IMG/VR virus record: IMGVR_UViG_3300035698_023746
Span: 1 to 29,424 of that record
Origin: a virus
Length of the DNA: 29,424 nucleotides
Direction: 5' to 3' (one strand)
The position numbers were made by a program, and so were the translations under genes. Shown piece after piece: positions 189-20,202 of the stretch (positions are counted from its first letter, which is position 1; every line of letters starts with the position of its first letter). A model generated the notes under the pieces. The model was not told the DNA's origin. It saw only the letters and a program-made list of their open reading frames with translations, and made no database searches.

Positions 189-468
189 GGCCTTAAGCCC
201 TCCTGTGTATTGGAGTTATGCGTATTATTGGTTTTGGAGTTACCAATAAATCCGACTTCCTCTCGCAGGGATATCACAGAGTTTAACGATATGAGCACTG
301 TCCTTACCACACGGGACTGTTTAACCCATATCCAAAGAGCTTGGAACTGAGGCGGTATCCCAAGGTTTCTAATTTTCTGTGTATCGTTTACAAACATTTT
401 TACTCCTGCCTGTCTGCTGGTAACCTTTGGCTTTTAAAAGCCATGGGGCTTGCCCCGTGGTAGGTTAC
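189..468 (-). ncRNA. omega-RNA (HEARO-like) scaffold of the IscB element
   Basis: Minus strand starts GTAACCTACC (cf. typical GTCAACTACC end). GTAACCT pairs with AGGTTAC around hairpins CCACGGGG-CAAG-CCCCATGG and GGCTTTT/AAAAGCC. Further on: GGGATACCGCCTCAGTTCCAAGCTCT, a GATATGGG/CTCATATC stem and a TATTGG/CCAATA stem. Lies directly 5' of iscB. Confidence 0.85.
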
Positions 469-1694
469 TCGTAATTTTTTATTGAGTGCTTAAGATACTC
501 CATGTAAAGAGAATCTGCACACTGATTTTTACCCTTGCTTTCAGAAATTTTAGCAACGGGTTGTCCGTGGCTTTTTGACATTTTCATGACAACTTGCGGC
601 GTTGGAACAATCGTGTCGTTCGTCAAATCTGTTCCTATGCCAAAAGAACATTGAATTTTCCTTCCAAAAATTTCATGAAGTTTAATTGCCTTCGGAATAT
701 CCAAGCCATCACTGAAAACAATGCATTTTTCCCGAGGGTCTATTCCATAACCTTCATACATGGCTATAATATCATTTGCAAATTTTACAGGATTCCCACT
801 ATCATGGCGCACTCCATCATACAATTTTGCCAACTCTAATGAAAAGTCTTTAAAAAACTTCTTATGACCCAACGTATCAGGAAGGCATATTCCCCAAAGC
901 CCCCTGTATTCACGAGACCATATTTTATATGCCTCTCTCGCGCTATGCTGGACAGGCACAAGTCCCTGCATGCCCATGGGTAAGACATGGCTGAAAGTTC
1001 CGATTGCTTTTAAATCAAACTGCATCGCAGAAAATACATTGCTTGTTCCGACTAGGTTTTCCCCAAGTTCTTCCTGTAAATATTTTATAACCTGGGTTTG
1101 CCAAGCTGAATGCAACCTGCGCCTTGTCCCGAATTCTATCAAACGAAATCCGAATTTACCACCTTCACAACTTCGAACATACGATTTCAGCACGTCAATT
1201 TTGTCCTGTAACCTTTCCCATGCAACCCTGTATACCTCTTCCGTGCTAACGCTGTTCGCTTCCATCCAGTTCTTAGCAAAAACTTGATTTACCGTTGACA
1301 AAACCATAGTTTCATAAGGAATAATCCTAGCCCACGGTCCTTTCGCGTTAATATCCCACCCCTCTCCATTTTTAGGGATTGTAAGGTCATTTTCTACATC
1401 AAACCGAAAATCTTTTAAATATCGCAAATAACTATTTTTAAAATAGCCAAGACGGGAAAGGTAATCTAATTCACGACGATCCAAAAGGAGGGGGTCCAAC
1501 TTGGAAAGGGCCTCCTTGATTTCGTCCCTCGAAACATATTTGAATAGATACCCTGACCCCTCGCCACCGCCTTTCACGTTTCGACAAACGAATTTATACT
1601 CACAGTCAACATTCGAGAAACGATGAAAGACTAATTGCTGCATCGTTAATTGATAAAGGTCAAGATCGAGAAGTGATTTCATAATATAGTTCAT
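465..1694 (-). CDS. pncB: Nicotinate phosphoribosyltransferase
   Basis: Motifs LLDLDLYQLTM, EFGTRRR, GTSNV, GTFSH (phospho-His position), PDT, RHDSG, FSDGLD, FGIGTDLTND, AKISE. GGAGG SD. Confidence 0.95.
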   Translation of the reverse strand: MNYIMKSLLDLDLYQLTMQQLVFHRFSNVDCEYKFVCRNVKGGGEGSGYLFKYVSRDEIKEALSKLDPLLLDRRELDYLSRLGYFKNSYLRYLKDFRFDVENDLTIPKNGEGWDINAKGPWARIIPYETMVLSTVNQVFAKNWMEANSVSTEEVYRVAWERLQDKIDVLKSYVRSCEGGKFGFRLIEFGTRRRLHSAWQTQVIKYLQEELGENLVGTSNVFSAMQFDLKAIGTFSHVLPMGMQGLVPVQHSAREAYKIWSREYRGLWGICLPDTLGHKKFFKDFSLELAKLYDGVRHDSGNPVKFANDIIAMYEGYGIDPREKCIVFSDGLDIPKAIKLHEIFGRKIQCSFGIGTDLTNDTIVPTPQVVMKMSKSHGQPVAKISESKGKNQCADSLYMEYLKHSIKNYE

Positions 1695-1848: not shown

Positions 1849-2649
1849 TCAAGAAAAGAACGTGTCTGTTCTCGAAATGCGCATTCCTTTTGCCGCCATT
1901 TCGTTGACAAAGTCGTCTGCAAGGTTTTCAAAACCCGCAACGGGCGAAGACGCATCTTCAAGAAAAACGAATTTCTTAACTTCCTCGTCTGAAAATTCGC
2001 CTGCCACATCAGAGACTGTCGAACGAACGCAATGTGATAGTGCTTCGCCCGCAATCAGGATGGTATCAGCCAATTTCAAGCTATTCACGAATGGCCCGTT
2101 GAGCTTCGTTGTGGGGTCATCAGGATCTTCCACTTCAGCCCTGACAGCGGAATAATGCTCGGTTTTTCGATTTGACCCCTTTGTCACAAAGTCAACCTCT
2201 GCAAATAATTTCTGCCACGCGATAAGTGCGTCGGAAAAAACGGGATAAATCGACCACCCCCATGTCCCGATAAGGCAGTGCGGAACCCAAATATTTAGAG
2301 GATGCCTTTTGTTGATAGCAAGAGATTTAACGTAACCAACCTGCCACTCTTGTGACGCAGGGTTAGAAGCTCTCCATTTAGCATCGGAACCAACAATATC
2401 GTTTTCTTCGATGATGGTAAATGGCACGGGATGATTGCCACTCGAATCAACCCAGCAAATTGGATTGGCAATATGCACAAGCTGATGGGAGTCTAGTGTG
2501 ACGCAAATATTGTCAATCTTGTCAGCGTGTTTCGTGATCATTTTGGCAACACGTTCAGCGTCTTCGCTCGCTCCAGCTACGCATAACGCGCCTTTGGGGT
2601 CGCAAAAATCATTCTGAAAATCAATCGCAAGTAGTTGTATATTTTTCAT
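1849..2649 (-). CDS. pncA: Nicotinamidase (isochorismatase-like cysteine hydrolase)
   Basis: IDFQNDF (catalytic Asp), LDSH and WVPHC metal ligands, TKG Lys, GEALSHCV (catalytic Cys). Adjacent to pncB. Confidence 0.88.
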   Translation of the reverse strand: MKNIQLLAIDFQNDFCDPKGALCVAGASEDAERVAKMITKHADKIDNICVTLDSHQLVHIANPICWVDSSGNHPVPFTIIEENDIVGSDAKWRASNPASQEWQVGYVKSLAINKRHPLNIWVPHCLIGTWGWSIYPVFSDALIAWQKLFAEVDFVTKGSNRKTEHYSAVRAEVEDPDDPTTKLNGPFVNSLKLADTILIAGEALSHCVRSTVSDVAGEFSDEEVKKFVFLEDASSPVAGFENLADDFVNEMAAKGMRISRTDTFFS

Positions 2650-2714: not shown

Positions 2715-4190
2715 TTAATCCTCGAATTTGAAATAAGGACAAGCTTTCTTTTTCTGCGCCCATGCGAAGACCCAAAGGTAAGCAAGGAACTGACCGATGA
2801 ATTTCAGGATATTTATGAAACCCGCCCATCCAGACGTAAGCAACCTGCCAATTGGTCCGAGGACTCTTTCAATAATCGCAGCAAGCTTCGCACAGTGTTC
2901 ATCCAAACGCGCCATTTTTTCTTCCCAAGCTTTGATTCGTTCAAGAGATCCATCAACGTCAATGATTAGAGAATCGGACAGTCGGAGAAACCATTTGTCG
3001 AATTTTGAAAAGCATTTATTAGTATACATATAATCCGTGCGATAGGGACCAAAGACCAAATCTAGCTGTTGCAAGAAGTTGTAAACGTCTTTGGACAGCA
3101 CATCTTTTGGCACGAATTCATCGAAGTAACAATGCCAGCCGTAAACGCTTCCCCGATGCCTCTTTGGCGTATCGCCGAAATCCTCTGGTTTGTGCAACAT
3201 CAGCGGCCCAATAAGCGGCCTTATGGTTTCCTCGTAGAAATCTTCTACAAATTGTTTCTTGAAAGAATCGTAGAATTTTGAATAATGGTTGATTTCACCT
3301 ATTCGCCCATAAGACGAAATCGCTTTTTCTTGCAGATTCATAACGAAGTCACCATCTTCGAGCATTCTATCCACAAACATCTGCTTCCATTCTCTTTGGT
3401 AAGTCGAAGGCTTCTCTTCTGAATCGTCATCATCCTCAAGGAGGAAAAAGCGGACAAGGAAAGAAAGACCTCCCAATATCACAGCGACTACCAAGGCAGG
3501 AATTGCCATTAATTTTGCGGCAAATACCGTCCATACAAAAAGCTTTACGGCACACCACCAGATTCCCCAAACAACCACAGAGATCCCCCCTCCAATCACA
3601 ATAAAAATGTTGAGAAAAGAAGCTAAGTTAAAGACAAGTATACCCGTAAGCATTAAGACTCCCCACCCATACACAAAATACTTAGTGGAACAGTTACACA
3701 GTCCCTTTTCTTCAAAAATCGCAGAAGCTGCGGCGATTGCGAGACCGATAGGAATTCCCCACCAAAGCATGTAATATATAGGCAGATGACCATACGCTAC
3801 AAGACCGCCAAGAAACACTCCGACAATGAGGGATAACACGAACCCGACGATGGACACGGCAAAGCCCATCAGGATAAGAGAGGCAATTCCCGCTCCCGTC
3901 TCTTTAGTAATGGGAAATGGGCAATGATTCCGCCCAAAATCGTCGACCACTTTAAAAGGCTTGGCTACTGTGCTTCTTAGGATAGGCTGAAAGATGTAAT
4001 AGATCGGCCAGACAAAACAGAACCTGAATCCCGTCATACCGAACAAGCCGAACCAAAAGAACGGGCAGACAGAGAATCCCTCTGGGACATCTTTTTGCCA
4101 CAATTCATTTTTAAACAAGTATTTGAAGCCCTTGTAGATTGGATGGGTTTTCTTATACCACGCTTTTACCATTTTTTCTGGAACTAACAT
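2715..4190 (-). CDS. Multi-pass membrane protein, unknown function
   Basis: About 6-8 long hydrophobic segments in residues ~40-250, an acidic linker (EDDDDSEE), a soluble domain and a hydrophobic C-terminal segment. AAAGGA SD. Confidence 0.8.
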   Translation of the reverse strand: MLVPEKMVKAWYKKTHPIYKGFKYLFKNELWQKDVPEGFSVCPFFWFGLFGMTGFRFCFVWPIYYIFQPILRSTVAKPFKVVDDFGRNHCPFPITKETGAGIASLILMGFAVSIVGFVLSLIVGVFLGGLVAYGHLPIYYMLWWGIPIGLAIAAASAIFEEKGLCNCSTKYFVYGWGVLMLTGILVFNLASFLNIFIVIGGGISVVVWGIWWCAVKLFVWTVFAAKLMAIPALVVAVILGGLSFLVRFFLLEDDDDSEEKPSTYQREWKQMFVDRMLEDGDFVMNLQEKAISSYGRIGEINHYSKFYDSFKKQFVEDFYEETIRPLIGPLMLHKPEDFGDTPKRHRGSVYGWHCYFDEFVPKDVLSKDVYNFLQQLDLVFGPYRTDYMYTNKCFSKFDKWFLRLSDSLIIDVDGSLERIKAWEEKMARLDEHCAKLAAIIERVLGPIGRLLTSGWAGFINILKFIGQFLAYLWVFAWAQKKKACPYFKFED

Positions 4191-4421: not shown

Positions 4422-5129
4422 TCAGCTTTTTGCGATATCTGAAGAGGTGAGAGAGTGCGAAGTCTTTACGATCTCAGAGAGACAGTGCGAAGTCTTTACG
4501 ATCTCAGAGAGACAGTATGGAGTGCGATGAATGACACGGTAGCCACACCCGACAACGATTGCTTCAATCCGACGAGTCGAGAGAGGCATCCCTTTCATCC
4601 GACTCTGCGCACTTTTGAGAGTAGCTGGGGTGCCATTTGTCAATCGATTCCTGACATAGGCCACAACTTTATTCGCCCAACTGTTGCTGATCGGAACAAT
4701 ATGAGCCGCCTTAGGGTCGGGTTTCTTCGTGAACCTCGACATTCTTTTCGCCGCCCTGTCTGCGAAGGTTTTTGCGGCTGTAGGGGTGCCTGCTACTGGA
4801 GGCCGAGGGTTTACTCGCGCAACTGGATCACTGGAAGTCTGAGGCTTTTTTGCCCCGTATTCTACGTATCTACCTCGATTTAACGTGGAGGAAACATCTG
4901 ACCTGTTCCGTGCAATCGCCCAGACGCGGCTTCTAACCTGCTTGTGCTCAATTAGTTGGGTAATCTTACCCTCAACGCTTTCGCTTTTAAATCCTTCGAT
5001 TGTAATCAACCTGCTATTCACTTTTTCCCTGATAGCCAGTGTGATTTCATGCGCTGAAAACGTTTTGTTCCCATCGACCTTTTCTTGGATCGCTTCTTTT
5101 ATAGCTTCTAAAAATTTTACTTGTCTCAT
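4422..5129 (-). CDS. Basic hypothetical protein, possibly DNA-binding
   Basis: 235-aa K/R-rich ORF in operon orientation. Contains the duplicated decapeptide CLSEIVKTSH. Confidence 0.7.
   Translation of the reverse strand: MRQVKFLEAIKEAIQEKVDGNKTFSAHEITLAIREKVNSRLITIEGFKSESVEGKITQLIEHKQVRSRVWAIARNRSDVSSTLNRGRYVEYGAKKPQTSSDPVARVNPRPPVAGTPTAAKTFADRAAKRMSRFTKKPDPKAAHIVPISNSWANKVVAYVRNRLTNGTPATLKSAQSRMKGMPLSTRRIEAIVVGCGYRVIHRTPYCLSEIVKTSHCLSEIVKTSHSLTSSDIAKS
4454..4516. repeat. Perfect 30-bp tandem duplication, in frame
   Basis: gcgaagtctttacgatctcagagagacagt at 4457-4486 and 4487-4516. Confidence 0.97.
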
Positions 5130-5190: not shown

Positions 5191-5490
5191 TTATCCAAGC
5201 CCACGAACTTTTCGCCAAACCTCCCGAGTAATCACGCCACTCATTTCATCTGGGTGTTTTATTTTCAAGGTTTCCCTGAACCACGTTGGTATAACGCCGC
5301 GCTTGTCCCATAGACGAAGCCCGTTTCGCAAAGCCATCCCTGAATGAAGATGGGTTTCTTCTACAAAGGCATTTTCACCTGTTTCCAAAATGAATGCCTT
5401 ATCTTCCTCTATCAATTCCCCGACCAAAATAGAAACTATTTGACCAAGGTCGATAGGGTTCATTTTTCTGACCATTTCTATGTTAAACAT
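5191..5490 (-). CDS. Hypothetical protein, DUF6794-like
   Basis: H-x-G-x-x-LRN-x-L-x-LW...HPDEMSGVI pattern matches my recollection of DUF6794. Not database-checked. Confidence 0.6.
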   Translation of the reverse strand: MFNIEMVRKMNPIDLGQIVSILVGELIEEDKAFILETGENAFVEETHLHSGMALRNGLRLWDKRGVIPTWFRETLKIKHPDEMSGVITREVWRKVRGLG

Positions 5491-5502: not shown

Positions 5503-6780
5503 TTAGTTAAACTCCACCAAGATGGTGAGATTGCATTGGTTGTTGTTGTAAACGATAAATTCATCATTTCTTATGCCCGATTTTCCATGTTTTGCCCAAG
5601 TCGAATCATATCCCGTGACAGGATAGCGACTTCCGCCGCCGTAACCACTTGGGGTATAAGCTTTTCCGAGAGCAACGTCGCCCAGAAACATAAAGCAGTT
5701 GGAATCTGTATTACCATCCCAATAACCATAAGAATAATTCAGGGACTTTGTCGAGTCAGAAGCGAAATAAATTCCATTCCCAAACATTTTACCCGCAATA
5801 TGCGCTGTGTTTGGCGGGGAAATCCTCAGTCCTCCCTTGAGAATCGAAAGCAGGTTTGCCTTCTTTGTGCCGTGCCACAGTTCACGCACGTTGTTTATTT
5901 TTTTCGCACGCTCTTCGAACGCGTCTGCCATTGAAGCAATCCTTACAAAGAAAGCTCGCTTGACAGATAGACGAGAGGCAACATGCATTCCCTTGCGAGT
6001 GTCCTTGTATTTATTAACGATGCGATCAAAAATCTTTGAATCTTCAATCAAATCAAGGGACACGTCAAAAACCTGCTCTTCTTTCTCCACGACAGTCTTG
6101 CTGGATGCGGGCTTCGTCTGAAGAGCCTTGTAAGATGCCTCCAAGGAATCTAAAATGTCACTTTGACGAACGACTGATTGTGTATCGGGGAAAATTGCGT
6201 TGACATCAAATTTCATTCCAATGTCCTGCGGGACGATTCTAAAATAGCTATTGATCCCATCATACCAATCATTATCTTGGTTCTCAAGGCCATCCTTGAT
6301 ACTCACTAATAAACCCCTCGCCTCATCAATCCCATCCTGTGTAACGACACCAAGAGGGGTGGAGAAGAGGCCAGTTGCGCCATTGTAGGTGATCTGTGTC
6401 GTGGAAACGATACTGTGGATGTTCCAACGCACAAGACGCTCAATCAATTTGTTTAGCTCGGGGCTATTGGAAGTTGCTTGGATCTGTGACTTTGCAACCG
6501 CATGAAGGTCGCCGCTATCATGGGTAACAGTTTTCGACTCGCCCTCTTTTACCGTGCGGACGGGAGTGTAACCCTTTTTAAGCTTCTCCTTTTCCTTTTT
6601 TCTCAAGAAAGACGCGCCGCCCCTGCTTGCTGGAAAGTTTGCAGACTGATTTTTCTTGCCTACCCGCCCCCACTCTGTAATTACCGTATCATCATCATAT
6701 AAAATGCCAATCCAGTGTTTGTTTGAGTTTTTCCGAGATTCTGCGTAAATGAGTCTGATTTCTGTTACTATGTTTGACAT
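5503..6780 (-). CDS. PARP-like ADP-ribosyltransferase (WGR + helical regulatory + catalytic domain)
   Basis: EWGRVG (WGR). TPLG...SYFRIVP (regulatory domain). LWHGT, GLRISPP, GKMFGNGIYFA, KSLNY, FLGDVALG, DEFIVY give an intact H-Y-E triad as in PARP1. Likely start is ATG 6780; the track starts at GTG 6789. Confidence 0.93.
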   Translation of the reverse strand: MSNIVTEIRLIYAESRKNSNKHWIGILYDDDTVITEWGRVGKKNQSANFPASRGGASFLRKKEKEKLKKGYTPVRTVKEGESKTVTHDSGDLHAVAKSQIQATSNSPELNKLIERLVRWNIHSIVSTTQITYNGATGLFSTPLGVVTQDGIDEARGLLVSIKDGLENQDNDWYDGINSYFRIVPQDIGMKFDVNAIFPDTQSVVRQSDILDSLEASYKALQTKPASSKTVVEKEEQVFDVSLDLIEDSKIFDRIVNKYKDTRKGMHVASRLSVKRAFFVRIASMADAFEERAKKINNVRELWHGTKKANLLSILKGGLRISPPNTAHIAGKMFGNGIYFASDSTKSLNYSYGYWDGNTDSNCFMFLGDVALGKAYTPSGYGGGSRYPVTGYDSTWAKHGKSGIRNDEFIVYNNNQCNLTILVEFN

Positions 6781-6787
6781 GGCTCCC

Positions 6788-6843
6788 ACAATGCAGTTTT
6801 TTTTTGATGAGTCAAGTTTTTTTTTGATGAGTCAAGTTTTTTT
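6788..6843 (-). promoter_or_regulatory. PARP promoter with a duplicated 20-bp unit (two TTGACT boxes, A9 tracts)
   Basis: agtttttttttgatgagtca at 6795-6814 and 6815-6834, plus a partial copy. Proximal TTGACT(6815-6810), 16 nt, CATTGT(6793-6788), 7 nt, ATG. Confidence 0.65.
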
Positions 6844-7462
6844 AGCAACAAAAGTCCCAAGAGTGGCCGCCACGAGAAAGGCACATTGGACACTCAATCG
6901 CGTCGTCCTCTGGGGTCGTCCCCATCGTGCTCCTAATCTTAAGGCGTAAGTCTTTCAAACGCTCTTGAATTTTCTCTGGATGGTAATCTTCCGTAACTTC
7001 TGGCCAAAGAAAAGTTTCTCCACCAGCCTCTTCCCATTCCCGAATATTCTTGGTGTTGTCGTCAATGAGAAGATCTTCGTCTCCCGTGCAGAATTTTGAT
7101 TTCGCCCCCGCCCCTATAACCAAGCGCTGAGTATGCTTTGGAAAGCTTTTCTTTACCCACTCAGCTTTCCCTGACCAGCAGCCCGAATCCATCATTGGCT
7201 TTGTTAGAAAGCACCATTGACCTTTCGTTTCCTCGTGGACAAGCTTGACAAGCTCATCTGCCCAAGGATATTTTTCAAGGTTCACCCAGAAATCATGACC
7301 GCGAATACGTTTGTAAAATGATCCCTTCGTTATTCCAAAGAGACTGATCAGATCGTAGCTGTCAAACTGCGTTTTCTCAGGGAGCGTATAGTTGAAGATG
7401 CGTGCTGCGCCCTTTGTAAAGTTTGCGAGAACGGCGTCAAGATCCAGACGGATAAATTTCAT
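6842..7462 (-). CDS. HAD-superfamily 5'(3')-deoxyribonucleotidase (NT5C-like)
   Basis: N-terminal DLDAVLANF (DxD motif), LTKP, LLIDDNTKNIREWEEAGG. Confidence 0.85.
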   Translation of the reverse strand: MKFIRLDLDAVLANFTKGAARIFNYTLPEKTQFDSYDLISLFGITKGSFYKRIRGHDFWVNLEKYPWADELVKLVHEETKGQWCFLTKPMMDSGCWSGKAEWVKKSFPKHTQRLVIGAGAKSKFCTGDEDLLIDDNTKNIREWEEAGGETFLWPEVTEDYHPEKIQERLKDLRLKIRSTMGTTPEDDAIECPMCLSRGGHSWDFCC

Positions 7463-7564: not shown

Positions 7565-7594
7565 ATTATGCGTGCCCCCCTTGAAATTAGTCAA
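7565..7594 (-). promoter_or_regulatory. sigma70-like promoter
   Basis: TTGACT(7594-7589), 18 nt, CATAAT(7570-7565), immediately after a terminator. Confidence 0.65.
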
Positions 7595-7595
7595 G

Positions 7596-7618
7596 AAAAA
7601 AGGGGCCGAAGCCCCTTT
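7596..7618 (-). terminator. Rho-independent terminator after the vWA gene
   Basis: AAAGGGGC-TTCG-GCCCC followed by T6; UUCG loop. Confidence 0.9.
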
Positions 7619-7624
7619 GTTTGA

Positions 7625-8308
7625 TTAGCTTTTCTCGAAGAAGTCCGCTTTGGTATCGTCCCCTGCGGCAGTGCTGGCATAATAGCCTATAGTGCTCGTC
7701 TCCAACTTACGGGTCATCTCTTGCACTCCCTTACCACTCGCAGCATATTGCAACGCGTTGGTAGCCAGAATGTTGTGGTCTCTTGCAAACTTCGCCACGT
7801 CATGATTCGCACCGATGTAAACGAACGTCCAGTCATGCTCATCTTGATGCTCTTTGATTAAGTCGGCAATTTGCCCGCCATTATAACAGCGAGAACTATT
7901 CTCTTCTCCGTCAGTAAAGATTGTCACTAATACCTTACATGATTGAAAATAATAGCCCAGCTTTTGACTTAGCGCTTTGATTCCATAACCAATTGCGTCA
8001 TAAAGAGCAGTTCCACCGCCAGTCTGATAGGTTTCACCGTTTAAAGGTTGCAGCGCCTCTGGCTTTTCACAAAGAAAAATTGTTTTTACGCCATTTTCCT
8101 CAGGCTTTCTCTTCTCAGCACCCTCATCACCAAACCAACCGCCGCTACTAAACACGATAAGTCCCGCAAAGGATTGAATATCATGCTGTTTGCTGCTATC
8201 TTTGATCGATTGAATTTGAGAGTTGAAAGATTCCATGATGGGTTCCTTTATAGAACACATGGAGCCGCTGGAATCAAGAATGATAAGATTAACTATTGCC
8301 TTATTCAT
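7625..8308 (-). CDS. von Willebrand factor A domain protein
   Basis: MIDAS motif ILDSSGSM, GGTALYDAIG, IFTDGEENSS, FVYIGAN. Start placed at ATG 8308 to avoid overlap; the track starts at 8326. Confidence 0.92.
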   Translation of the reverse strand: MNKAIVNLIILDSSGSMCSIKEPIMESFNSQIQSIKDSSKQHDIQSFAGLIVFSSGGWFGDEGAEKRKPEENGVKTIFLCEKPEALQPLNGETYQTGGGTALYDAIGYGIKALSQKLGYYFQSCKVLVTIFTDGEENSSRCYNGGQIADLIKEHQDEHDWTFVYIGANHDVAKFARDHNILATNALQYAASGKGVQEMTRKLETSTIGYYASTAAGDDTKADFFEKS

Positions 8309-8313
8309 AATAA

Positions 8314-9153
8314 TTACCCTATCCATCCTGCTGGTGGTGTCGCAAAGTCGCTAAACCCTTTTGGGAAAGCAACGGAAGTTTCTTTTGCGCAAAAAACAGG
8401 AACACCCATATCGATGAGCGCCTGACGGCTTGCGTAGAAAATATTCATCTCTCCAAAAAGATCACCCTTTTTGAAATCGACCTCAGTAACTTTCTGGCCT
8501 TTCTTTTGGCCCCAAGTTGTTCCCATGTCAAAGTTTGCTGGCTGTGCCGCGCTTGCGACCAAGCCCTTATTCTCATAGGTTGCTTTACTTCGCGTCTGCC
8601 TTGCACTGCAAGGAGTTCCACCATATCCGCCACTGGCAGAGCCGCTGTAACAATCAGTCGTGGCACCTATCCACCCTCCCGTAACATTCGCTCCCGTAAC
8701 ATTCGCTCCGATCCCAACATTCGCCTCAAAATGCCGATCCTGCCAATCGATAGGTTCTCCCCATACAGGGATCTCCACTTTTTCCTCAAACACTCGAACG
8801 CTTATTACGCCTTCGTTACCACCCTCACCCTGCGATGAAGCGTAGCTGTTGCTTTTGCCCGTGAAGCTGAATGCCCCAACACTGTTGTTGTTATTCTGGA
8901 AACCTTTTAGCTTTACCGTGCTTCTAGGCTCTAATATATAGCCTCCCGATTTGCTTTTCGCGGCCTTGCCGCTGATAACGCTGACACCATCAACTGATAC
9001 GATGGCTAACGCCTTTTGATCTCCATGGTTTTTTATTTCCAGTTCGTATTCCGAGCCTTCTTTGGCTTCGATAAAAACACGACCGTCGTGTGTGTGTTCT
9101 TTCACTTTCCTTCCATTGACCAATACTCTCATTGTGTACTTGTATATATCCAT
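8314..9153 (-). CDS. Conserved hypothetical beta-rich protein, co-transcribed with vWA
   Basis: YELEIKN...VSVDG...GYILEP...GF...FSF...GVISVRVFEE pattern, a Gly-rich linker and FDMGTTWG. AAGGA SD. Confidence 0.8.
   Translation of the reverse strand: MDIYKYTMRVLVNGRKVKEHTHDGRVFIEAKEGSEYELEIKNHGDQKALAIVSVDGVSVISGKAAKSKSGGYILEPRSTVKLKGFQNNNNSVGAFSFTGKSNSYASSQGEGGNEGVISVRVFEEKVEIPVWGEPIDWQDRHFEANVGIGANVTGANVTGGWIGATTDCYSGSASGGYGGTPCSARQTRSKATYENKGLVASAAQPANFDMGTTWGQKKGQKVTEVDFKKGDLFGEMNIFYASRQALIDMGVPVFCAKETSVAFPKGFSDFATPPAGWIG
8676..8709. repeat. 15-bp tandem duplication, in frame (GANVT x2)
   Basis: ctcccgtaacattcg at 8676-8690 and 8691-8705, with a degenerate third copy following. Confidence 0.9.
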
Positions 9154-12981: not shown

Positions 12982-14517
12982 TCAATTCTCGAAATACAAT
13001 GTGAAGTTATGCGGGTTTTGGAACGCAAGCGTATCGAGTTTCATTCCCTGTTTCTCATACTTTCGAACAAAAGATTTTCCGAAATCATTTATAACATCAC
13101 AATTTGGAAATTCTTGCAACCCCATATTGTATTGCCTAACCACCCCTCGGACGCTCGTGACCATGTTAGTATACGAACACTTACAGTAATAAATTTTACG
13201 CTCTGCAATTTTCTTGCCCTCATAGGTAACAGAAACAATCCCCCACTCAGACTCATCGTCCCTTTTCAGATCAGGGAAAACCTTTTCCATTTTTGCCTGA
13301 CTAACTAAAGCATAAATCTTGAAATGGCCCTCTTTTGCATCCCAACCTAACCCATTGATTGGTATATTGTTGCGGGTAAAAAACGAAACGTCAACGCCAC
13401 GCTCTTTTATAATCGCATTGACTTTTTCCGATAGGAAAAGTGGGTGAGCTATACTTCCACACGCCATCCTTCCTGAGTTGACGTGATCCTTTTTTTCGAC
13501 CCTGTGGCTAAAGGTAAAATTGCTGATTCTTGAATCTTCTACCGATGGTTCTCCGTCAAGCTGACAGCAAAGGTCAACGTAGTCAAGCTCTTTTGGAGTT
13601 AGGCACGCTTTCCAATCAAAGAAATTTTTGCAGTGCCAATGAAAATTCTCAAGTCTACGGTTAACAGAAAGCTTTTTCATCGCATGGGTTACTGTAATCT
13701 CCCTGTCGAAAAATTTTGTCTTGATTCCCCAAGATTGATGAATGTCGTGTGAGAATGAGTCATCCACCCCACCCATCTTTATAAACCCAATATTTCCGAA
13801 TGGGTAGGTTGGGATGGGAACCTGAGTGTATCGAAACCTTTTCTCAGGAAACGCAAAGGACAAGGCGTATTTCAAATAGCGCACAAAATCTGGCGCAACA
13901 TAAAAGGTTGGGCATTGAGTTATAATTCTCCCGCCCTTGGATAGAATCTGCGAGCAGCCTATGTAAAAATCGACATCAAAAAGACGCCTTGCTGGACCAA
14001 CAGGGTCTGACAAGTCAAGAATAATTACATCGTATTCCTTTTTGTTTTGCGCTGCACGGTGAACGAAATCAAACCCGTCCTTATTGAAAAAATTGGCCCT
14101 CGAAGAATTCATCGCTTCTGAGATTTTAAAGCTTGACATGTGCCTCTCACACAACCTAACAACATTTATGTTTATTTCGCACCAATCAATCTCGCTGATA
14201 ACGTTAGATGGGTATTTTAAAAGCTCCCTAACGCAGCCACCATCCCCCCCTCCAATTACCAACACTCGCATGTCCTTCGGACTCAACCTTGCAGTCGTTG
14301 CCATCGGCCAGTGAACAATGGTCTCATGATAGACATGCTCATCGAATTCACAGGTTTGGATTTCATCATCCAGAAACAAAGCTCTTCCCAGCCCCTCAAT
14401 GTCTCGAATAGAAACGTCTTCTACCGTCTGAACATCTGATGCCTTGAAGCCCATGGAATGGTTTGTTTGCCCATCTCCTAAGCTGTAGTCTTGATAACGC
14501 CATGTATTATTTTTCAT
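12982..14517 (-). CDS. speE: Spermidine synthase (aminopropyltransferase) fused to a ~230-aa unknown C-terminal domain
   Basis: ALFLDDEIQ, VYHE, VLVIGGGDGG, CEIN, DVIILDLSDP in the first ~275 aa. 511 aa total versus ~280-300 aa for ordinary SpeE. Confidence 0.88.
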   Translation of the reverse strand: MKNNTWRYQDYSLGDGQTNHSMGFKASDVQTVEDVSIRDIEGLGRALFLDDEIQTCEFDEHVYHETIVHWPMATTARLSPKDMRVLVIGGGDGGCVRELLKYPSNVISEIDWCEININVVRLCERHMSSFKISEAMNSSRANFFNKDGFDFVHRAAQNKKEYDVIILDLSDPVGPARRLFDVDFYIGCSQILSKGGRIITQCPTFYVAPDFVRYLKYALSFAFPEKRFRYTQVPIPTYPFGNIGFIKMGGVDDSFSHDIHQSWGIKTKFFDREITVTHAMKKLSVNRRLENFHWHCKNFFDWKACLTPKELDYVDLCCQLDGEPSVEDSRISNFTFSHRVEKKDHVNSGRMACGSIAHPLFLSEKVNAIIKERGVDVSFFTRNNIPINGLGWDAKEGHFKIYALVSQAKMEKVFPDLKRDDESEWGIVSVTYEGKKIAERKIYYCKCSYTNMVTSVRGVVRQYNMGLQEFPNCDVINDFGKSFVRKYEKQGMKLDTLAFQNPHNFTLYFEN

Positions 14518-14891
14518 TAATTATTTATCCCTCTCGATATTTCTTTCACGTCAATCTTTTTTGCACAAATTCGTTTCTGAATTGCTGACATAAACTTGCT
14601 GAAATCGTGAGGTCCGCAAACGTGATAGTCTATAAGTGCCTGCCCCAACTCTGGCCACGTATGTATAGAAGCGTGGGACTCTGCTAAGGACAACAAAACT
14701 GTCACACCCTGAGGTGAAAATGACCTTGCCATTCCTCCAAGACAAGTGCTTCCCGCCTCTTCCACTGCAATCAAGAGGGTAGAGTAAAGATCCTTCTCGC
14801 TATTTAATACGCTTTCATCACACCCAAAAACATCAACAAGATAATGCTTGGAAATCGGATTGTGTTTAGATGTTAATTTTTCATCACCCAT
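14517..14891 (-). CDS. speD: S-adenosylmethionine decarboxylase proenzyme (class 1b)
   Basis: KHYLVD, PQGVT, LAE|SHASIHTWPE self-cleavage (pyruvoyl) motif, CG. Adjacent to speE. Confidence 0.92.
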   Translation of the reverse strand: MGDEKLTSKHNPISKHYLVDVFGCDESVLNSEKDLYSTLLIAVEEAGSTCLGGMARSFSPQGVTVLLSLAESHASIHTWPELGQALIDYHVCGPHDFSKFMSAIQKRICAKKIDVKEISRGINN

Positions 14892-16144
14892 TATTTCAAA
14901 TCGCTGAGTTTTAGATAAGCCTTCCTGTCTAAGATAGACAAGTCGCTTAAGAAGATTATATCATTCGAACGAGATCCTTTTGCAATCACAATGTTTCCAT
15001 CCTCTGGCAACACAATCTTCCCATTGGTGGGAGTGTTCCTATCAATCCACTTGTTGAAAGACCAATCATAAAAGATACACTTTAAGCTTGCATCAGAGTC
15101 GTCAAGTGTAAGCTTTAACATATCAGCATTTTTCGCCTTGGACTTGGACCTCTTCACCTCAGATAAGCTTCCGCAGAAAATCCCACGCTCTCTATCCTCC
15201 ATTTTGTCGAACTCACTCAAAGGCTTCAACTCTCTTTGCTCTTCCTTGAGAATCTCAAATAATGAATCACTATAAGAAAAACCTAACAGTTCCTTTTCAA
15301 AGAACCAATTGGCAAGCCTGTTATGCTCCCTATTTCTTTTGTAAATCTCAAGGTATCGAACACTTTTCCGCTGGATGGTTCCCCCATCTTCCTCCATACT
15401 CTGACCCTCAGCTAGGATCTTCCATCTGGTGGGTTTGAAAATCAAAACCTTGCCGCCCTCATCCTTTCGATCCTCTTCTACACAGACTCTAATTAATTCG
15501 AACAGATTGTTGTCGAACTCTCCCGTGAATTGTAAGACGTAACGCTTCTCCCTTGGAGTTAATAGGTTAAAGACTTGCGCCTCCAACACCGCGTAACAGC
15601 GAGGCTTGTCTTGTAAGATGATGGAATTGATTGCTCCTGCTTGAATCAAAGCAGAAAGAGCACCAATAGATATGCCGACTTCTTTTGCAGCGAGAAAAAG
15701 CTCGAACTTGTTTGAGATGGTTTTCCCCTCAACAATATCTCTCAGCTTCTCTACAGTATCATATTTCTTATGACCTATTCCTTTCACTGCTGCCAATCCA
15801 AAACGAATATTCTTCCCCTCAATGGCAAATGCAATTTCACTCTTCAATAAATCAGGAGGTAGAAGCTGGGTTCCAAAATGACTAAGCTCTTTTGTGATCT
15901 TGGATATCTCCAAGTGAGGCTTTGGCTCTTTCAAACTCATGTTCAACAGCGCCAAGAAAAACTCTTTTGGGTAGTTCCACTTAAGGTAAAGCGTCCACGC
16001 GGAAAGGGTTGCGTAAGAAATACTGTGGCTATTGGAAGTTACTAATCCCTCGGCATAAAAATTGTGATTTGAATGTCCAACTTCTAAATCCAAGGTTTTC
16101 TTTTTTCCTATGTTTCTAATCTTTTTAATTTTTGTAGTTCGCAT
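14891..16144 (-). CDS. dnaE: DNA polymerase III alpha C-terminal part, preceded by split intein IntC
   Basis: After a 38-aa IntC: SHSISYATLS...YLK..YP.EF, LLPPDL..S, IRFGLAAVKGIG (HhH), EKELLG, C-terminal OB fold. Confidence 0.95.
   Translation of the reverse strand: MRTTKIKKIRNIGKKKTLDLEVGHSNHNFYAEGLVTSNSHSISYATLSAWTLYLKWNYPKEFFLALLNMSLKEPKPHLEISKITKELSHFGTQLLPPDLLKSEIAFAIEGKNIRFGLAAVKGIGHKKYDTVEKLRDIVEGKTISNKFELFLAAKEVGISIGALSALIQAGAINSIILQDKPRCYAVLEAQVFNLLTPREKRYVLQFTGEFDNNLFELIRVCVEEDRKDEGGKVLIFKPTRWKILAEGQSMEEDGGTIQRKSVRYLEIYKRNREHNRLANWFFEKELLGFSYSDSLFEILKEEQRELKPLSEFDKMEDRERGIFCGSLSEVKRSKSKAKNADMLKLTLDDSDASLKCIFYDWSFNKWIDRNTPTNGKIVLPEDGNIVIAKGSRSNDIIFLSDLSILDRKAYLKLSDLK
16031..16144 (-). 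other. Split intein C-half (IntC, 38 aa)
   Basis: MRTTKIKKIRNIGKKKTLDLEVGHSNHNFYAEGLVTSN|S. Block F (DLEV...NFY), terminal Asn, +1 Ser. Confidence 0.93.
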
Positions 16145-16344: not shown

Positions 16345-18180
16345 CTATTCTTTACATACGATTTCCCAATCTTCTTCTAATACCCTTTTCAAAGAACGCA
16401 TTTTTTTATCCGAGCATAAAAATTTATGATCTAAAGAACACTGTATTTTTCTTCCATCTTCAAACTCAACTTCTTGAAGCTCGGCTGAACTTTCATGTAT
16501 ATCAACAACTTCTACATAATGGTTTTTGTCTCTTTCTACATCGTAAGCCAAAACTTCATCCCCGCTCTTTATCTCAAACAAACATCTGTTCCCGCCTCTT
16601 GTTTCGACGATAGTATCTGGCATTAAACACTTATTAAACGAATAATACTTCGAATCATCGAGAATCTTCCAATAGACTCCAGCCAATTCTTCTGACAATC
16701 CTTTTTCTTTTGCGGCTGCGTAAACTTTCTCCCTCCATTCCGCCATCTCTTCGGTCTTTTTCTTTCCCACAACTCGACGCAACAACTCTGTTTCATCTAG
16801 TGATAAGCCAAAAACAAGATGCCCTATTTGCATCATTTGCTCTTGATAAAGAGGAACGTTCTGAGTGGAAGCTAAAATCCTATCTAGTTCAGGATGATTG
16901 GGTTTCACATACTTCGCGCCTGTTTTATAGTCTGCGTAATCTCCGATGTAAGCTAAAGCTCCTGGCCTTGCTAACGCCATCAAATCAGAAACTTCTGCCA
17001 AACAATTAGGCTTTACCTTTCTACATGCTTGGTATTGAGTCTCTGCTTCAATTTGAAAGATTCCATGCGGCGTTTTAAGCTCTTGTAGTGGTTCGTATAT
17101 CGCTGGATTGCTCAAGTCTACCTTCTCTATGTCAATTCCAACCTGCTTGCAAACATCACTGATCACAGAGATCGTCTTTAGCCCCAGCACATCAACCTTA
17201 ACGGTGAGTTCCTGCATGCTATACATGTCATAACCAGAGACCAACTCTGCTTCCTTCGTCTCTTTATTCTCGGTTATTTGGATCGGGCATATTTCGTCAA
17301 GGCTTCCATACGAGATAGCCATTGCAGAAGCGTGAACGCTGAAATTTCGTGGTAAGCCTTCCAACTTACAGGCAATATCAAAGAGGTCTTTGTTACTTGT
17401 CTTCCGACCTAGCCCACCTGTTGTTTTGTAAGGGTCTTCCGCCCACTTTCTCAATGATGGTGACTCTTCTATAGCATCCTTAAGCTTAGACAAAACACCA
17501 TGATGCTTTAAGATTAAATCTGCAAGCTCCCTTGCTGCCTCTTCATCATACTCTCCTGCAACCTTGACAACATCCTTCATCACAAGCTTTCCGCTCATGG
17601 TATTGACAGTTAAGATTTTTGCCGTCCTACCTGCGAACTTCTTGCTTATATAGTCGAGCACTTCGCGGCGACGATAATAACAAATATCAGAATCAACGTC
17701 TGGCAACAAGCCTCCATCAAAATAGGTTATGCCGTCTACGATTGTAGACTTGGCTCTAGGCTTACTAACAAACCTCTCAAAGAAAAGATTGTTCTCAATA
17801 GGGTCTATATTCGTAACCCCGATAAGATATAGAACTAAGGAGCCCGCAGCAGATCCACGTCCTGGACCTACTGGTATCTTACCTTCATGACAAAAGTTAA
17901 TGATGTCCCAAATCAGAAGAAGGTAATCAACAAACCCAAGCTCTTCAAGAATCTGTAGTTCGAACTTTCCACGCTCCACATACTCTTTGTTGTTCTTCAC
18001 ATCAAGCAGCTTGCGAGTCGCCATTCCTTTGAAACATAGCTCTTTTAAAAACTGTGGATTGCTAATATCGCTGCTTACGCCTAGCCTGTCATAGTATTTC
18101 TTCTCTATTTCAAACGCGGGTAAGCGGACGCCATGCATTCCCATGTCATCGTAGGGCTCGAACTGTTCTACAAACTTCAT
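16345..18180 (-). CDS. dnaE: DNA polymerase III alpha catalytic part (no PHP domain), followed by split intein IntN
   Basis: GRGSAAGSLV, LFFERF, PDVDSD and KVDVLGL catalytic Asps, GIFQIE, LARPG, YQEQMM. Extein ends YYSFNK. Confidence 0.96.
   Translation of the reverse strand: MKFVEQFEPYDDMGMHGVRLPAFEIEKKYYDRLGVSSDISNPQFLKELCFKGMATRKLLDVKNNKEYVERGKFELQILEELGFVDYLLLIWDIINFCHEGKIPVGPGRGSAAGSLVLYLIGVTNIDPIENNLFFERFVSKPRAKSTIVDGITYFDGGLLPDVDSDICYYRRREVLDYISKKFAGRTAKILTVNTMSGKLVMKDVVKVAGEYDEEAARELADLILKHHGVLSKLKDAIEESPSLRKWAEDPYKTTGGLGRKTSNKDLFDIACKLEGLPRNFSVHASAMAISYGSLDEICPIQITENKETKEAELVSGYDMYSMQELTVKVDVLGLKTISVISDVCKQVGIDIEKVDLSNPAIYEPLQELKTPHGIFQIEAETQYQACRKVKPNCLAEVSDLMALARPGALAYIGDYADYKTGAKYVKPNHPELDRILASTQNVPLYQEQMMQIGHLVFGLSLDETELLRRVVGKKKTEEMAEWREKVYAAAKEKGLSEELAGVYWKILDDSKYYSFNKCLMPDTIVETRGGNRCLFEIKSGDEVLAYDVERDKNHYVEVVDIHESSAELQEVEFEDGRKIQCSLDHKFLCSDKKMRSLKRVLEEDWEIVCKE
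16348..16629 (-). other. Split intein N-half (IntN, 94 aa)
   Basis: CLMPDTIVET (block A, Cys1)...EDGRKIQCSLDHKF (block B His)...VCKE*. Confidence 0.93.
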
Positions 18181-18572: not shown

Positions 18573-19433
18573 TTAAGTCCCTAGTGGAGTTTCCTCTAGT
18601 ATTCTTTTTTTTTCAGCCTCATCCTTGTTTCTTGCCCGAATCAGTATTGGGCGAATCTCCATCAGGATTTTACCAAGATGATTCTTCCCTTCCCCGCTAC
18701 AAACCCCCCAGAACCTGTCATGCCTGCTATTTGTCCCTTCTAAATGCTTGTCTTTTGTTAGAACTAATTTCTCTCTTAAGTATTTGTTGTTCTTAAACTT
18801 AGAGTAAACGATTGAATGCATCCATCGTAATTTCCTGTCATGAAAACCATCGTCTATTTCGACACCCTTCTGAGTCAGTTCCCTTACCATTTTCTTGACC
18901 CTTCTCCCAGAAACCCCTTCGAACTTGTGGACAATCTCAGGTCGTGATGCAAACTTTGTGGCTTGGTATGCGGCCTCAGATGATTGGAACTTATATTTTC
19001 CAAGCTTCATTTCACAGGGCCACATATTGGAAAGCCACCTACGGTTTCCTTGAAATCCGACATCACCTTTTAGGCAAATGTCTTTTGATGGAACTCCCGT
19101 GTAAATAATCTTAATGTGACGCTGCTTTGTTATTCCAAAGGATATTGCCTGCAATGTTCCCTTGCTCATGCAATCCCAGAAGGCCAAAAGCGCATCAGTT
19201 TGGGTGACGATCTCACAGTTTAATTTAAAACGAGTGTTCTTGCCGCTTTCGCCGCTCAGAACCTTAAAAGGAATGTCTTTTTCCGTAGCGTAGCGTGCAA
19301 CGAATACCTCTACGCCACTCTCGGCGTCGCCCGTTACAATGCTCTCGGGCTTTGGCAAGCTATCTAACAGTTTTTCAAAACTCTCGTAGTCTTTGTATTC
19401 TCTAGATCCTACGACTGCTAACTTATATAACAT
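18573..19433 (-). CDS. SLOG (DUF2493/YspA-like) - NADAR (YbiA/DUF1768) fusion
   Basis: N-half: LAVVGSRE, IVTGDA, LLAFWDCMSKGT. C-half: WLSNMWPC, SSEAAYQATKF, SKF, LREKL, HDRFWG, GKNHLGKILMEIR. Start ATG 19433 has an AAGGAG SD; the track starts at 19487. Confidence 0.88.
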   Translation of the reverse strand: MLYKLAVVGSREYKDYESFEKLLDSLPKPESIVTGDAESGVEVFVARYATEKDIPFKVLSGESGKNTRFKLNCEIVTQTDALLAFWDCMSKGTLQAISFGITKQRHIKIIYTGVPSKDICLKGDVGFQGNRRWLSNMWPCEMKLGKYKFQSSEAAYQATKFASRPEIVHKFEGVSGRRVKKMVRELTQKGVEIDDGFHDRKLRWMHSIVYSKFKNNKYLREKLVLTKDKHLEGTNSRHDRFWGVCSGEGKNHLGKILMEIRPILIRARNKDEAEKKRILEETPLGT

Positions 19434-20202
19434 TGTCCATCTCCTTTGTTGGGTAAAATTCAAATTTTCCGTCTTCAATAATTCCAAAATGCTTATTGAG
19501 AGTGTCTAGATTGTGGTTGAACGAATTATCCCCTATTTGTGTTTGTGGGTAATCAACAATGGTGTGTCCCACTATTTGGCTTACCCCTTTAATGGGTTTA
19601 AAACCTTCGTTCCAGTCTAGCCACAGAGGGCCACCGAAGGGGGGACCGAGGGGTTTCCCCTGCCTTGCCCATCCAATATCAAACAAGGGATGTTTCCCGC
19701 CGCACTTTCCAACGACAAGGCCCATCTCAGCAAAGCCCTTTAAGAAACCCTCTGAAACCCCTCTTACAGGATGGCACTTGCTTGGGTGAAACCCCGCGTG
19801 AGACAAGAGCCACCCTTCCACGATAGTAAAAACCTTTACCTTTTCCCGATCCTCCGACCCTAAGACATCCGATATCGCAAAGTGTTTTTCAGGCGTATGC
19901 CCCGCACAAGAGGTTACCTTGTTGTTCCCTAAGATGTAGGGCGCGTCATGATTGCCCATCAAGCAAATGCATTTGGGATGGTTCAAGGCTTTCTTGTATT
20001 CGATAGCTGTGGATCGTGCTGATTTAATAGCAGTGTCCGAGACCTCAAAGGAGAGCCTCCCATCTTCGTCCCTCTTGTAGTCACCCCAAGAGTCAAACCA
20101 GTCGCCAAGGAAGACAACGCGGTCCACCCTGTCAATGCGCTTCATTAATCGTCGCAAAGGCTTGAGTCTGTTGTGTATGTCTGACCATATTAAAGTTTTC
20201 AT
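19423..20202 (-). CDS. Calcineurin-like metallophosphoesterase
   Basis: SDIHN, LGDWFD, MGNHD, SHAG, VGHT motifs. Confidence 0.92.
   Translation of the reverse strand: MKTLIWSDIHNRLKPLRRLMKRIDRVDRVVFLGDWFDSWGDYKRDEDGRLSFEVSDTAIKSARSTAIEYKKALNHPKCICLMGNHDAPYILGNNKVTSCAGHTPEKHFAISDVLGSEDREKVKVFTIVEGWLLSHAGFHPSKCHPVRGVSEGFLKGFAEMGLVVGKCGGKHPLFDIGWARQGKPLGPPFGGPLWLDWNEGFKPIKGVSQIVGHTIVDYPQTQIGDNSFNHNLDTLNKHFGIIEDGKFEFYPTKEMDNVI

Follow-up and report, generated by a model that had tools for sequence, protein, structure and literature searches.

Genes encoding PARPs with the H-Y-E catalytic triad were reported in the genomes of Aeromonas phage Aeh1 and Cellulophaga phage phi4:1 by Perina et al. in 2014 (PMC4245714), and Iyer et al. 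(2021) described PARPs in jumbo phages, citing the protein of phage XacN1 (BBA65562.1; PMC7824862). A 2022 survey places PART/PARP among the most frequent viral ADP-ribosyltransferase (ART) families (PMC9503650), and a 2024 study lists PARP with the NAD-dependent genes of gut jumbo phages, called 'NAD-jumbo phages' (PMC11662467). Here, we analyse a PARP gene carried by IMG/VR virus record IMGVR_UViG_3300035698_023746, of which we considered positions 1 to 29,424 (the whole stretch of 29,424 nucleotides, hereafter 'the window'), together with a gene for a winged-helix protein that accompanies it in most related lineages. The window PARP is a member of a catalogued family, since phage PARPs were already listed in 2014 and surveyed in 2021-2022; the rarity implied by an earlier, sequence-only reading of this DNA is at odds with these reports, as well as with the existence of PHROG 23333 and of GenBank annotations.

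In GenBank, PARP is annotated in the records of Xanthomonas, Klebsiella and Cellulophaga phages, with 33-38% identity to the window protein overall and 33-36% for full-length tblastn matches. The annotated phage PARPs comprise those of XacN1 and Xoo-sp13 (Xanthomonas), 05F01, vB_KpM_FBKp34 and KP13-16 (Klebsiella), CM1 and RAS14 (Stenotrophomonas), and phi4:1 and phi17:2 (Cellulophaga). The window PARP represents the same family (PHROG 23333) and the same size class, with a WGR domain, a helical domain (HD) and an ART domain, yet it is only about one third identical to them.

The WGR-helical-ART arrangement is also the usual layout of bacterial PARPs, two of which are active in vitro, one in a DNA-dependent manner (PMC8120803); the term 'eukaryote-like', applied to the window enzyme in the sequence-only reading, is thus an overstatement. 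HaPARP of Herpetosiphon aurantiacus, whose activity requires DNA (PMC8120803), and CdPARP of Clostridioides difficile CD160 share with the window PARP the minimal WGR-helical-ART layout and the H-Y-E triad (PMC8120803, PMC5966428), and provide the best precedent from experiment among non-eukaryotic enzymes of this kind. Unlike the window clade, in most of whose examined genomes no poly(ADP-ribose) glycohydrolase (PARG) was found, these two enzymes are accompanied by such a product-reversing glycohydrolase. Similar to the WGR-HD-catalytic (CAT) part of human PARP1-3, the window PARP retains H-Y-E and the equivalents of His826, Met890, Lys903 and Tyr907. In contrast to the human enzymes, to which it is about 21% identical, it lacks zinc fingers, a BRCT domain and the N-terminal tail, its region before the catalytic glutamate is about 23 residues shorter, Asn replaces Tyr986, and there is no counterpart of their HPF1, PARG and nucleosome context. 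In turn, the Alt, ModA and ModB proteins of T4 resemble it in being phage-encoded members of an NAD+-consuming ADP-ribosyltransferase family, but they are R-S-E mono-transferases devoid of WGR and helical domains (PMC8120803, PMC9503650).

Domain architecture and active site of the PARP

The open reading frame (ORF) 5503-6780 almost certainly encodes an intact WGR-HD-ART PARP (Table 1). The sequence-only reading had proposed a complete WGR-HD-CAT enzyme with H-Y-E at these coordinates, and Pfam, searches of PDB sequences, a 31-sequence alignment and structure comparison all bear this out; the extent of the gene (425 amino acids and a stop codon) agrees with that reading, too. The ATG at 6780 is the likely start, because the GTG at 6789 falls within the GGGAG ribosome-binding sequence.

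Of the three Pfam profiles expected for such a protein, the PARP catalytic domain (PF00644; 110 bits with a cut-off at 26.7, E 1.3e-31) and WGR (PF05406; 30 bits against 22) are matched above cut-off and PARP_reg (PF02877) just below it; for many close homologues a PF02877 match is precomputed. In phmmer searches of PDB, the WGR-HD-CAT part of PARP1 ranks first (4opx, E 4.3e-25, residues 32-377 of the window protein), followed by PARP2 (E 6e-20, from residue 3), PARP3, PARP4 and the tankyrases, with the PARP4 and tankyrase alignments extending to residues 421-424. The PARP1 alignment pairs LWHGT with LWHGS (His862) and GIYFA with GIYFA (Tyr896). An AlphaFold2 model built on the 31-sequence alignment (mean pLDDT 78.5) has an N-terminal domain rich in beta structure, a bundle of helices spanning residues 107-221 (helices 107-127, 148-167, 172-182 and 200-221) and an ART fold. 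Over its full length, this model matches 4dqy_C, the WGR-HD-CAT chain of PARP1 on a DNA double-strand break (Foldseek, E 5.5e-25, TM 0.69/0.65); PARP2 on DNA was matched as well. We accept the helical domain because this full-length structural match supplements the marginal Pfam score.

Across the 31 aligned family members, His303, Tyr338 and Glu407 are invariant; in the WGR motif this also holds for Gly38 and Arg39, and nearly for Trp37. His266, which the phmmer alignment equates with PARP1 His826, is likewise invariant, as are Lys345, Ser346 and Tyr349, with the equivalents of PARP1 Lys903 and Tyr907 among the invariant positions. The position of PARP1 Met890 is occupied by Met in most of the sequences, including the window PARP. 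The active site is thus H-Y-E and not the R-S-E of the T4 Alt/ModA/ModB type, and no Alt or Mod family matched the protein among the Pfam and PHROG profiles, so the separation from these T4 enzymes made in the sequence-only reading stands.

The protein matches PHROG 23333, the phage PARPs (E 1.2e-60), its residues 14-424 covering 12-382 of the 383 profile positions. Homologues at E <= 1e-5 number more than 2,241, the top 120 being about 420 amino acids long and 45-57% identical. We found that the PARP belongs to a large metagenomic clade: its relatives at 45-57% identity come from contigs that reach 478 kb and bear rIIA/rIIB, RNA ligase and ribonucleotide reductase genes, and at least 66 related loci are present in IMG/VR, on contigs of up to 467 kb. 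Five metagenome contigs of different sample origin encode the identical protein; the PARP DNA is identical too, and therefore these contigs allow no test of selection by synonymous change.

Table 1. Features of the window discussed in the text, with positions on the 29,424-nucleotide stretch
Feature	Coordinates	Strand	Basis or remark
ORF	5503-6789	-	ORF scan of window
PARP gene	5503-6780	-	425 codons, stop at 5503-5505; ATG at 6780, GGGAG 4 bases upstream
WGR domain, residues ~3-75	6556-6774	-	PF05406; Trp37-Gly38-Arg39 conserved; beta-rich, pLDDT >90
Helical (PARP_reg-like) domain, residues ~93-222	6115-6504	-	sub-cut-off PF02877; modelled helices; full-length PARP1 match
ART catalytic domain, residues ~239-425	5506-6066	-	PF00644; PDB phmmer matches
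His303 codon CAC (PARP1 His862)	5872-5874	-	phmmer alignment and 31-sequence alignment
Tyr338 codon TAT (PARP1 Tyr896)	5767-5769	-	phmmer alignment and 31-sequence alignment
Glu407 codon GAA, in NDEFIVY (PARP1 Glu988, in YNEYIVY)	5560-5562	-	by motif; 31-sequence alignment
PARP partner, 235 amino acids, pI 10.4	4422-5129	-	N-terminal winged helix 1-95; disordered Pro/Thr/Lys-rich linker; C-terminal winged helix-turn-helix 149-200
DUF6794 gene between PARP and partner	5191-5490	-	position not conserved in relatives
HAD/NT5C-like 5'(3')-deoxyribonucleotidase	6842-7462	-	first gene of predicted unit; not PARP-adjacent elsewhere
Perfect 20-bp tandem repeat, 2.5 copies	6795-6843	.	contains TTGACT; directly upstream of PARP start
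Terminator-like hairpin (7618-7599), then promoter-like TTGACT-18-CATAAT (7594-7565)	7565-7618	-	consensus scan only
VWA/MIDAS-type protein	7625-8326	-	homologue of XacN1 VWA gene
Divergent PncA-like nicotinamidase	1849-2649	-	Asp, Lys and Cys catalytic positions align with yeast Pnc1
PncB nicotinate phosphoribosyltransferase	465-1694	-	TIGR01514 345 bits vs 269.6; NF003704 407 vs 379; Pfam
NADAR-domain protein	18573-19487	-	PF08719 67 bits vs 35.1; N-terminal SLOG-like YAcAr 18.9 bits, sub-cut-off

A winged-helix protein encoded next to the PARP

To describe the gene context, ORFs were called and clustered in about 10 kb on each side of the PARP in 72 phage-type loci (the window and L006-L076), which collapse to 59 PARP lineages at 90% identity. 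By far the commonest PARP neighbour is a homologue of the window gene at 4422-5129, located 374 bp downstream of the PARP gene, and a second cluster of proteins of about 220 amino acids occupies the same position relative to PARP. The two subfamilies have an N-terminal domain in common (hhalign probability 96%, E 2.2e-9). Profiles of this domain pick out exactly one ORF per positive locus, always on the PARP strand; it is present in 41 of the 59 lineages, and in 34 of these the gene lies between a 3-bp overlap with PARP and 1.5 kb downstream of it. The small ORFs between PARP and partner in the loci compared, DUF6794 of the window among them, form no conserved family and are mutually unrelated.

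The linkage was also examined in a sample collected independently of PARP. A search of 1.84 billion representative proteins with the N-domain profile returned 1,544 representative clusters at E <= 1e-3 and 270 at E <= 1e-10; only 7 proteins came out of a word-indexed homologue search that used the partner profile. From the representative clusters, five were chosen blind to genomic context: two of the five partners lie directly behind a PARP C-terminus, another 600 bp behind a full PARP, a fourth on a contig equal in length to the longest contig bearing PARP P0012, and the contig of the fifth was too short to judge. In metagenomes, PARP and partner genes are neighbours in hundreds of cases.

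The partner is, by modelling, a tandem winged-helix protein predicted to bind DNA. Its model (pLDDT 80.6) has two confident domains, residues 1-95 and 149-200, and both match winged-helix folds only, namely Fur, BlaI/MecI, the globular domain of histone H5, PefI, IdeR, the MCM winged helix and Z-alpha. VIA Z reaches 8 and Foldseek probability 0.99, but all Foldseek E-values are 0.15 or above; because of these weak E-values, the fold assignment relies on the consistency of the winged-helix matches and on VIA Z. The C-terminal domain of the second subfamily appears AbrB-like by eye, and a third variant carries a weak PP-binding match. No significant match to the partner was obtained among Pfam, PDB-sequence, PADLOC or Atlas features, and the family is of no described kind. 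The 3' end of the window partner gene contains a 30-bp tandem repeat (4449-4516; 2.3 copies at 97% match), which doubles the peptide CLSEIVKTSH and lengthens the C-terminus past the ends of the relatives.

The PARP-partner pair is not restricted to phages. A scan of one genome per prokaryotic species, in which loci were retrieved with patterns from the window PARP clade only, yielded 28 cellular loci at 37-49% identity (best aligned segment), mostly from Armatimonadota, but also from Blastocatellia, a Gemmataceae genome, a Treponema genome and a 'Nitrospinales' metagenome-assembled genome (MAG). Some of them are on megabase contigs. The partner N-domain is adjacent to PARP in nine of the 28. 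In a quick maximum-likelihood tree, 21 Armatimonadota and Blastocatellia PARPs form one clade among viral lineages (SH-aLRT 98); the tree is unrooted, does not include eukaryotic, HaPARP or CdPARP sequences, and its row L099, a wrongly picked ORF on a very long branch, is to be disregarded. Close homologues are therefore found on IMG/VR phage contigs as well as in a chromosomal Armatimonadota/Blastocatellia clade, and not, as the sequence-only reading had allowed for, on chromosomes only. The 'Nitrospinales' contig (L095, JAYOZP010000018.1, 49.9 kb) is probably a phage fragment mis-binned into a bacterial MAG, because its PARP nests inside a viral clade and is followed by a phage-type partner.

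Probable phage setting, possible NAD+ salvage and other neighbours

Every sizeable ORF of the window is on the minus strand, and packing is tight. Genes of replication and nucleases comprise a split dnaE with an intein remnant, PHP-like and RNase T-like exonucleases and a PD-(D/E)XK nuclease, and are joined by a primase, DnaB, a UvsX-like recombinase, four HNH endonucleases and a ClpB-like ATPase (PHROG, Pfam). Metabolic genes include those for S-adenosylmethionine (SAM) decarboxylase, spermidine synthase, GDP-mannose dehydratase, NADAR, a nicotinamidase-like protein and PncB. Based on this gene content and on the relatives, the window PARP very probably comes from an uncultured tailed phage, probably a jumbo phage. 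The 'phage-like genome' of the sequence-only reading is thus upheld as far as gene content goes, for a region of replication and metabolism; no virion gene (capsid, portal or terminase) is present in the 29 kb.

A 365-kb contig with PARP and partner, rated 100% complete by CheckV, does contain a terminase. Among related viral records, Terminase_6N (PF03237) was matched in one of five and Terminase_6C (PF17289) in none of seven, the four closest relatives there being fragments that are 18-42% complete. When 25 kb of the window were compared by megablast with 50,697 phage records, no match was obtained, and an exact 37-mer taken from the start of the PARP gene does not occur in IMG/VR. Protein searches with the ClpB-like and DnaE sequences gave distant matches only, some on probably host-derived contigs, and no cultured relative.

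As for NAD+ metabolism, a PncA-like gene and pncB lie 3-5 kb from PARP. The PncA-like protein is below cut-off in Pfam (24.7 bits against 27) and far below it in NCBIfam (32.6 bits against 174); it aligns with yeast Pnc1 (2h0r, phmmer E 2.6e-6) in the DxQNDF, KG and xCV motifs. In a few further lineages, PARP has a PncA or PncB homologue no more than 10 kb away. The window shows neither NadD nor NadE, so that NAD+ synthesis would have to be completed, in its last two steps, by the host or by genes elsewhere in the genome. Similar to the NAD+ synthesis modules of other phages (NadV/Nampt with NadM or NadR; pncB-nadD-nadE of gut jumbo phages, PMC11662467), salvage genes stand here beside an NAD+ consumer, but unlike in those modules the pair is PncA and PncB, leading from nicotinamide via nicotinate to nicotinate mononucleotide (NaMN). 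Since nicotinamide is a by-product of every ADP-ribosyl transfer, it is plausible that PncA and PncB limit the NAD+ cost; we propose the salvage link to PARP tentatively and would not rely on it.

The NADAR-domain protein, encoded 12 kb from PARP and tied to it by proximity alone, is a possible ADP-ribose-processing enzyme. For such candidate erasers we surveyed the PARP phages XacN1 and Klebsiella 05F01 along with three PARP-encoding IMG/VR contigs of 100% rated completeness, and found a Macro domain in all five genomes and NADAR in four, a count taken from PARP-encoding genomes only. In the 379-kb contig of locus L014 (G001), a Macro gene (95 bits) at about 34.8 kb is located about 1.3 kb downstream of PARP, and in Klebsiella 05F01 the Macro match falls on the gene termed 'putative phosphatase', some 5 kb upstream of PARP.

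The NT5C, PARP, DUF6794 and partner genes form one predicted unit, as a terminator-like and a promoter-like site precede NT5C; this suggests a single transcription unit. The hairpin at 7618-7599 is GC-rich with a T-run, and past the promoter-like site the scan detected no other terminator-like sequence on the coding strand before 4200. The 20-bp repeat in front of PARP recurs at no other place in the window, where 0.08 matches would be expected by chance, and could be a duplicated promoter or operator. In the other loci compared, the NT5C, DUF6794, polyamine and replication genes are unlinked to PARP. The VWA protein may represent a second, looser companion: it is 26% identical (E 3e-19) to the VWA protein of XacN1, whose gene (L078:7267-7917) directly follows the XacN1 PARP. 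Weaker VWA copies occur within about 6 kb of PARP in L031 and L063.

Several other neighbours were recorded. A T4 Rnl1-type RNA ligase gene is found about 3-11 kb from PARP in 13 of the 59 lineages, usually about 3 kb upstream (loci including L006, L009, L043-L046, L051-L056, L059 and L072), and another (L002:9721-10950) some 8 kb past PARP on a contig that is identical with the window. In one sublineage (L008:8441-9607, L109:1648-2766), an ATP-dependent DNA ligase gene is positioned just upstream of PARP and a Ro60/TROVE-vWA gene a few kb downstream, with a sigma factor nearby. The 491-amino-acid ORF at 2715-4190 (-), which separates the partner from PncA, matched nothing in the Pfam, PHROG, NCBIfam, PADLOC and Atlas searches; its sole relative among the loci (33% over 201 amino acids) lies between PARP and partner in L035. 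The dnaE gene of the window is split into ORFs 14891-16144 and 16345-18180 (-), the C-terminal piece carrying an HHH_6 domain and the N-terminal piece ending in a weak intein-splicing match (residues 536-594), which fits a split intein. The SAM decarboxylase gene directly precedes the gene at 12982-14517 (-), whose 511-amino-acid product has its spermidine synthase domain at residues 60-248 and a C-terminal half without family match.

Proposed mechanism and alternative explanations

The best explanation, which we regard as reasonably probable, is that of an active DNA-gated transferase acting with its partner and with recycling of nicotinamide. The window enzyme would be a catalytically competent PARP-family ADP-ribosyltransferase of minimal, PARP2/3-like and bacterial layout, with a likely mechanism that follows by homology from PARP1-3 and the Herpetosiphon enzyme: the WGR domain would bind DNA ends or nicks, binding would loosen the helical domain that otherwise blocks the NAD+ site, and the ART domain would then ADP-ribosylate itself and DNA-associated proteins with single units or short chains. 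The proteins modified would be those bound to DNA during phage DNA metabolism, and the winged-helix protein would be the first candidate co-worker, as a DNA-tethering subunit, a dedicated acceptor or both. Nicotinamide released in the reaction would be deamidated by PncA and converted by PncB to NaMN, which would limit the NAD+ cost. What the analysis establishes is the domain architecture, the catalytic residues, the membership in the family, the linkage of the genes and the identity of PncB; we infer the activation by DNA, the targets, the chain length, a physical contact with the partner and any role in infection. Judging by homology, we lean slightly towards activation by DNA breaks; a functional tie between PARP and partner is fairly probable.

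As for chain length, the sequence features point both ways. The lack of PARG, the loop shortened by about 23 residues and the Asn at the Tyr986 position lean towards single units or short chains, or irreversible marking, while the invariant equivalents of His826, Lys903 and Glu988 and the mostly kept equivalent of Met890 lean to polymer.

A number of observations weigh against the proposed explanation. The partner is missing in 18 of the 59 lineages; unlike in the window, no partner accompanies PARP in the cultured phages XacN1 and Klebsiella 05F01, the two neighbourhoods that were read, and tblastn of two partner queries against GenBank phage records found no homologue. Gene linkage is, moreover, no proof of contact between the two proteins, and the vicinity of PncA and PncB, seen in few lineages, could be a coincidental clustering of auxiliary genes. 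In the enzyme itself, PARP_reg scores 21.8 bits against the cut-off of 26.8, the stretch from Tyr349 to Glu407 is shorter than in PARP1, and Asn stands in place of Tyr986. The H-Y-E triad is necessary but not sufficient for a polymerase, PARP3 and PARP4 being mono-transferases despite having it, as the PDB name of PARP4 also says. PARG was found in none of the five PARP phage genomes with PF10021 (microbial PARG), whose control was positive in Deinococcus, nor with PF05028 (eukaryotic PARG), whose control matched nowhere and which is thus uninformative; PF10021 was detected in one of five bacterial genomes of the clade, far from PARP. Finally, the literature searched held no paper assaying any phage PARP, and we know of nobody who has shown the role of a PARP in a phage or, in vivo, in a bacterium.

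Among the alternatives, a transferase of host takeover or anti-defence survives best, although we consider it clearly unlikely. Analogous to T4 Alt/ModA/ModB, the enzyme would mainly act on proteins of the host, for example RNA polymerase, nucleoid proteins or defence nucleases, its WGR domain serving only to bring it to DNA; the winged-helix protein would be a transcription factor with nothing but the operon in common with PARP. This has been proposed for phage PARPs, by comparison with other phage ARTs that hit host machinery (Iyer et al., 2021; PMC7824862), ARTs are common tools of phage takeover (PMC9503650), and the partner folds are indeed those of ordinary transcription regulators (Fur, MarR, BlaI, IdeR). 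Yet, the full WGR-HD apparatus is kept across the clade, which argues for DNA-gated activity, and PARP is placed among replication and recombination genes and not among early takeover genes. Furthermore, the tie of the partner to PARP in the PARP-independent sample would be unusual for a generic regulator, and the pair also resides in bacterial chromosomes, where host takeover does not apply.

Less probable again, and distinctly so, is that the enzyme modifies DNA ends, with ADP-ribose on terminal phosphates capping them against host exonucleases or marking the breaks made by homing endonucleases, and with Macro and NADAR proteins as erasers. PARP1-3 can ADP-ribosylate terminal DNA phosphates in vitro, ends would be supplied by the several HNH endonucleases and a linear-genome lifestyle, the window has a NADAR gene, and the PARP phage genomes combine Macro (five of five) and NADAR (four of five) with no PARG. 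DNA ADP-ribosylation by PARPs is the subject of a review (PMC8385414). However, what NADAR is known to act on is guanine-linked and not phosphate-linked ADP-ribose, and the sequence offers nothing that would separate DNA from protein acceptors. Moreover, Macro and NADAR domains are common in jumbo phages with or without PARP (PMC7824862).

Even more improbable is an NAD+ sink or exclusion module, in which foreign or broken DNA would trigger the burning of NAD+ against NAD+-dependent defences or superinfecting phages, and the bacterial copies would act in abortive infection. On chromosomes of Armatimonadota and Blastocatellia, which also have the pair, an NAD+ consumer that senses DNA would look like a defence system, but PADLOC matches neither PARP nor partner, and the Chthonomonadaceae copy on a 6.1-Mb contig has DUF1501, a response regulator, a kinase and PP2C as neighbours, that is, an ordinary cellular setting and no defence island. 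Depletion is also opposed by the phage's nicotinamide salvage genes; the 'drain NAD+' role offered by the sequence-only reading fits poorly because these genes, PncA and PncB, are its own and only 3-5 kb away.

That the contig is a misassigned cellular fragment with a bacterial PARP, or the gene an inactive, decaying relic, is very improbable: the 29 kb without capsid, portal or terminase gene and the bacterial-type DnaE, DnaB, ClpB-like and PncB genes would agree with it, but the content is that of a large phage (UvsX-like recombinase, homing HNH genes, intein-split dnaE, PHROG matches, tight packing on one strand), the nearest PARP relatives are on IMG/VR contigs and contigs with rIIA/rIIB, and the frame is open with all catalytic residues intact.

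Returning to the DNA-gated transferase and its partner, a more far-reaching version can be put forward, which we consider speculative and rather unlikely to hold in full. PARP and partner would constitute a dedicated two-component module of DNA-break signalling in jumbo phages and some bacteria, in which the N-terminal winged helix docks on PARP or presents the acceptor, while the variable C-terminal DNA-binding domain (a winged helix, AbrB-like by eye, or in few cases one with a carrier-protein PP-binding match) tethers the module to DNA. It would be a prokaryotic counterpart of PARP-histone or PARP-HPF1, without PARG, that marks replication and recombination intermediates or genome ends, its NAD+ cost being covered by PncA and PncB.

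The bare finding is an ordinary one, i.e., one more intact phage PARP, and the useful part is the conserved partner. Its presence beside the enzyme in most lineages and in some bacterial chromosomes provides a concrete first candidate for a target or a targeting subunit. The PncA/PncB pair, in turn, suggests how a phage affords an NAD+ consumer while hosts defend themselves by NAD+ depletion. Aravind and colleagues have reportedly proposed that a phage/bacterial clade lies near the stock of the eukaryotic PARPs; if this is true of the present clade, the partner could show what PARPs targeted before histones.

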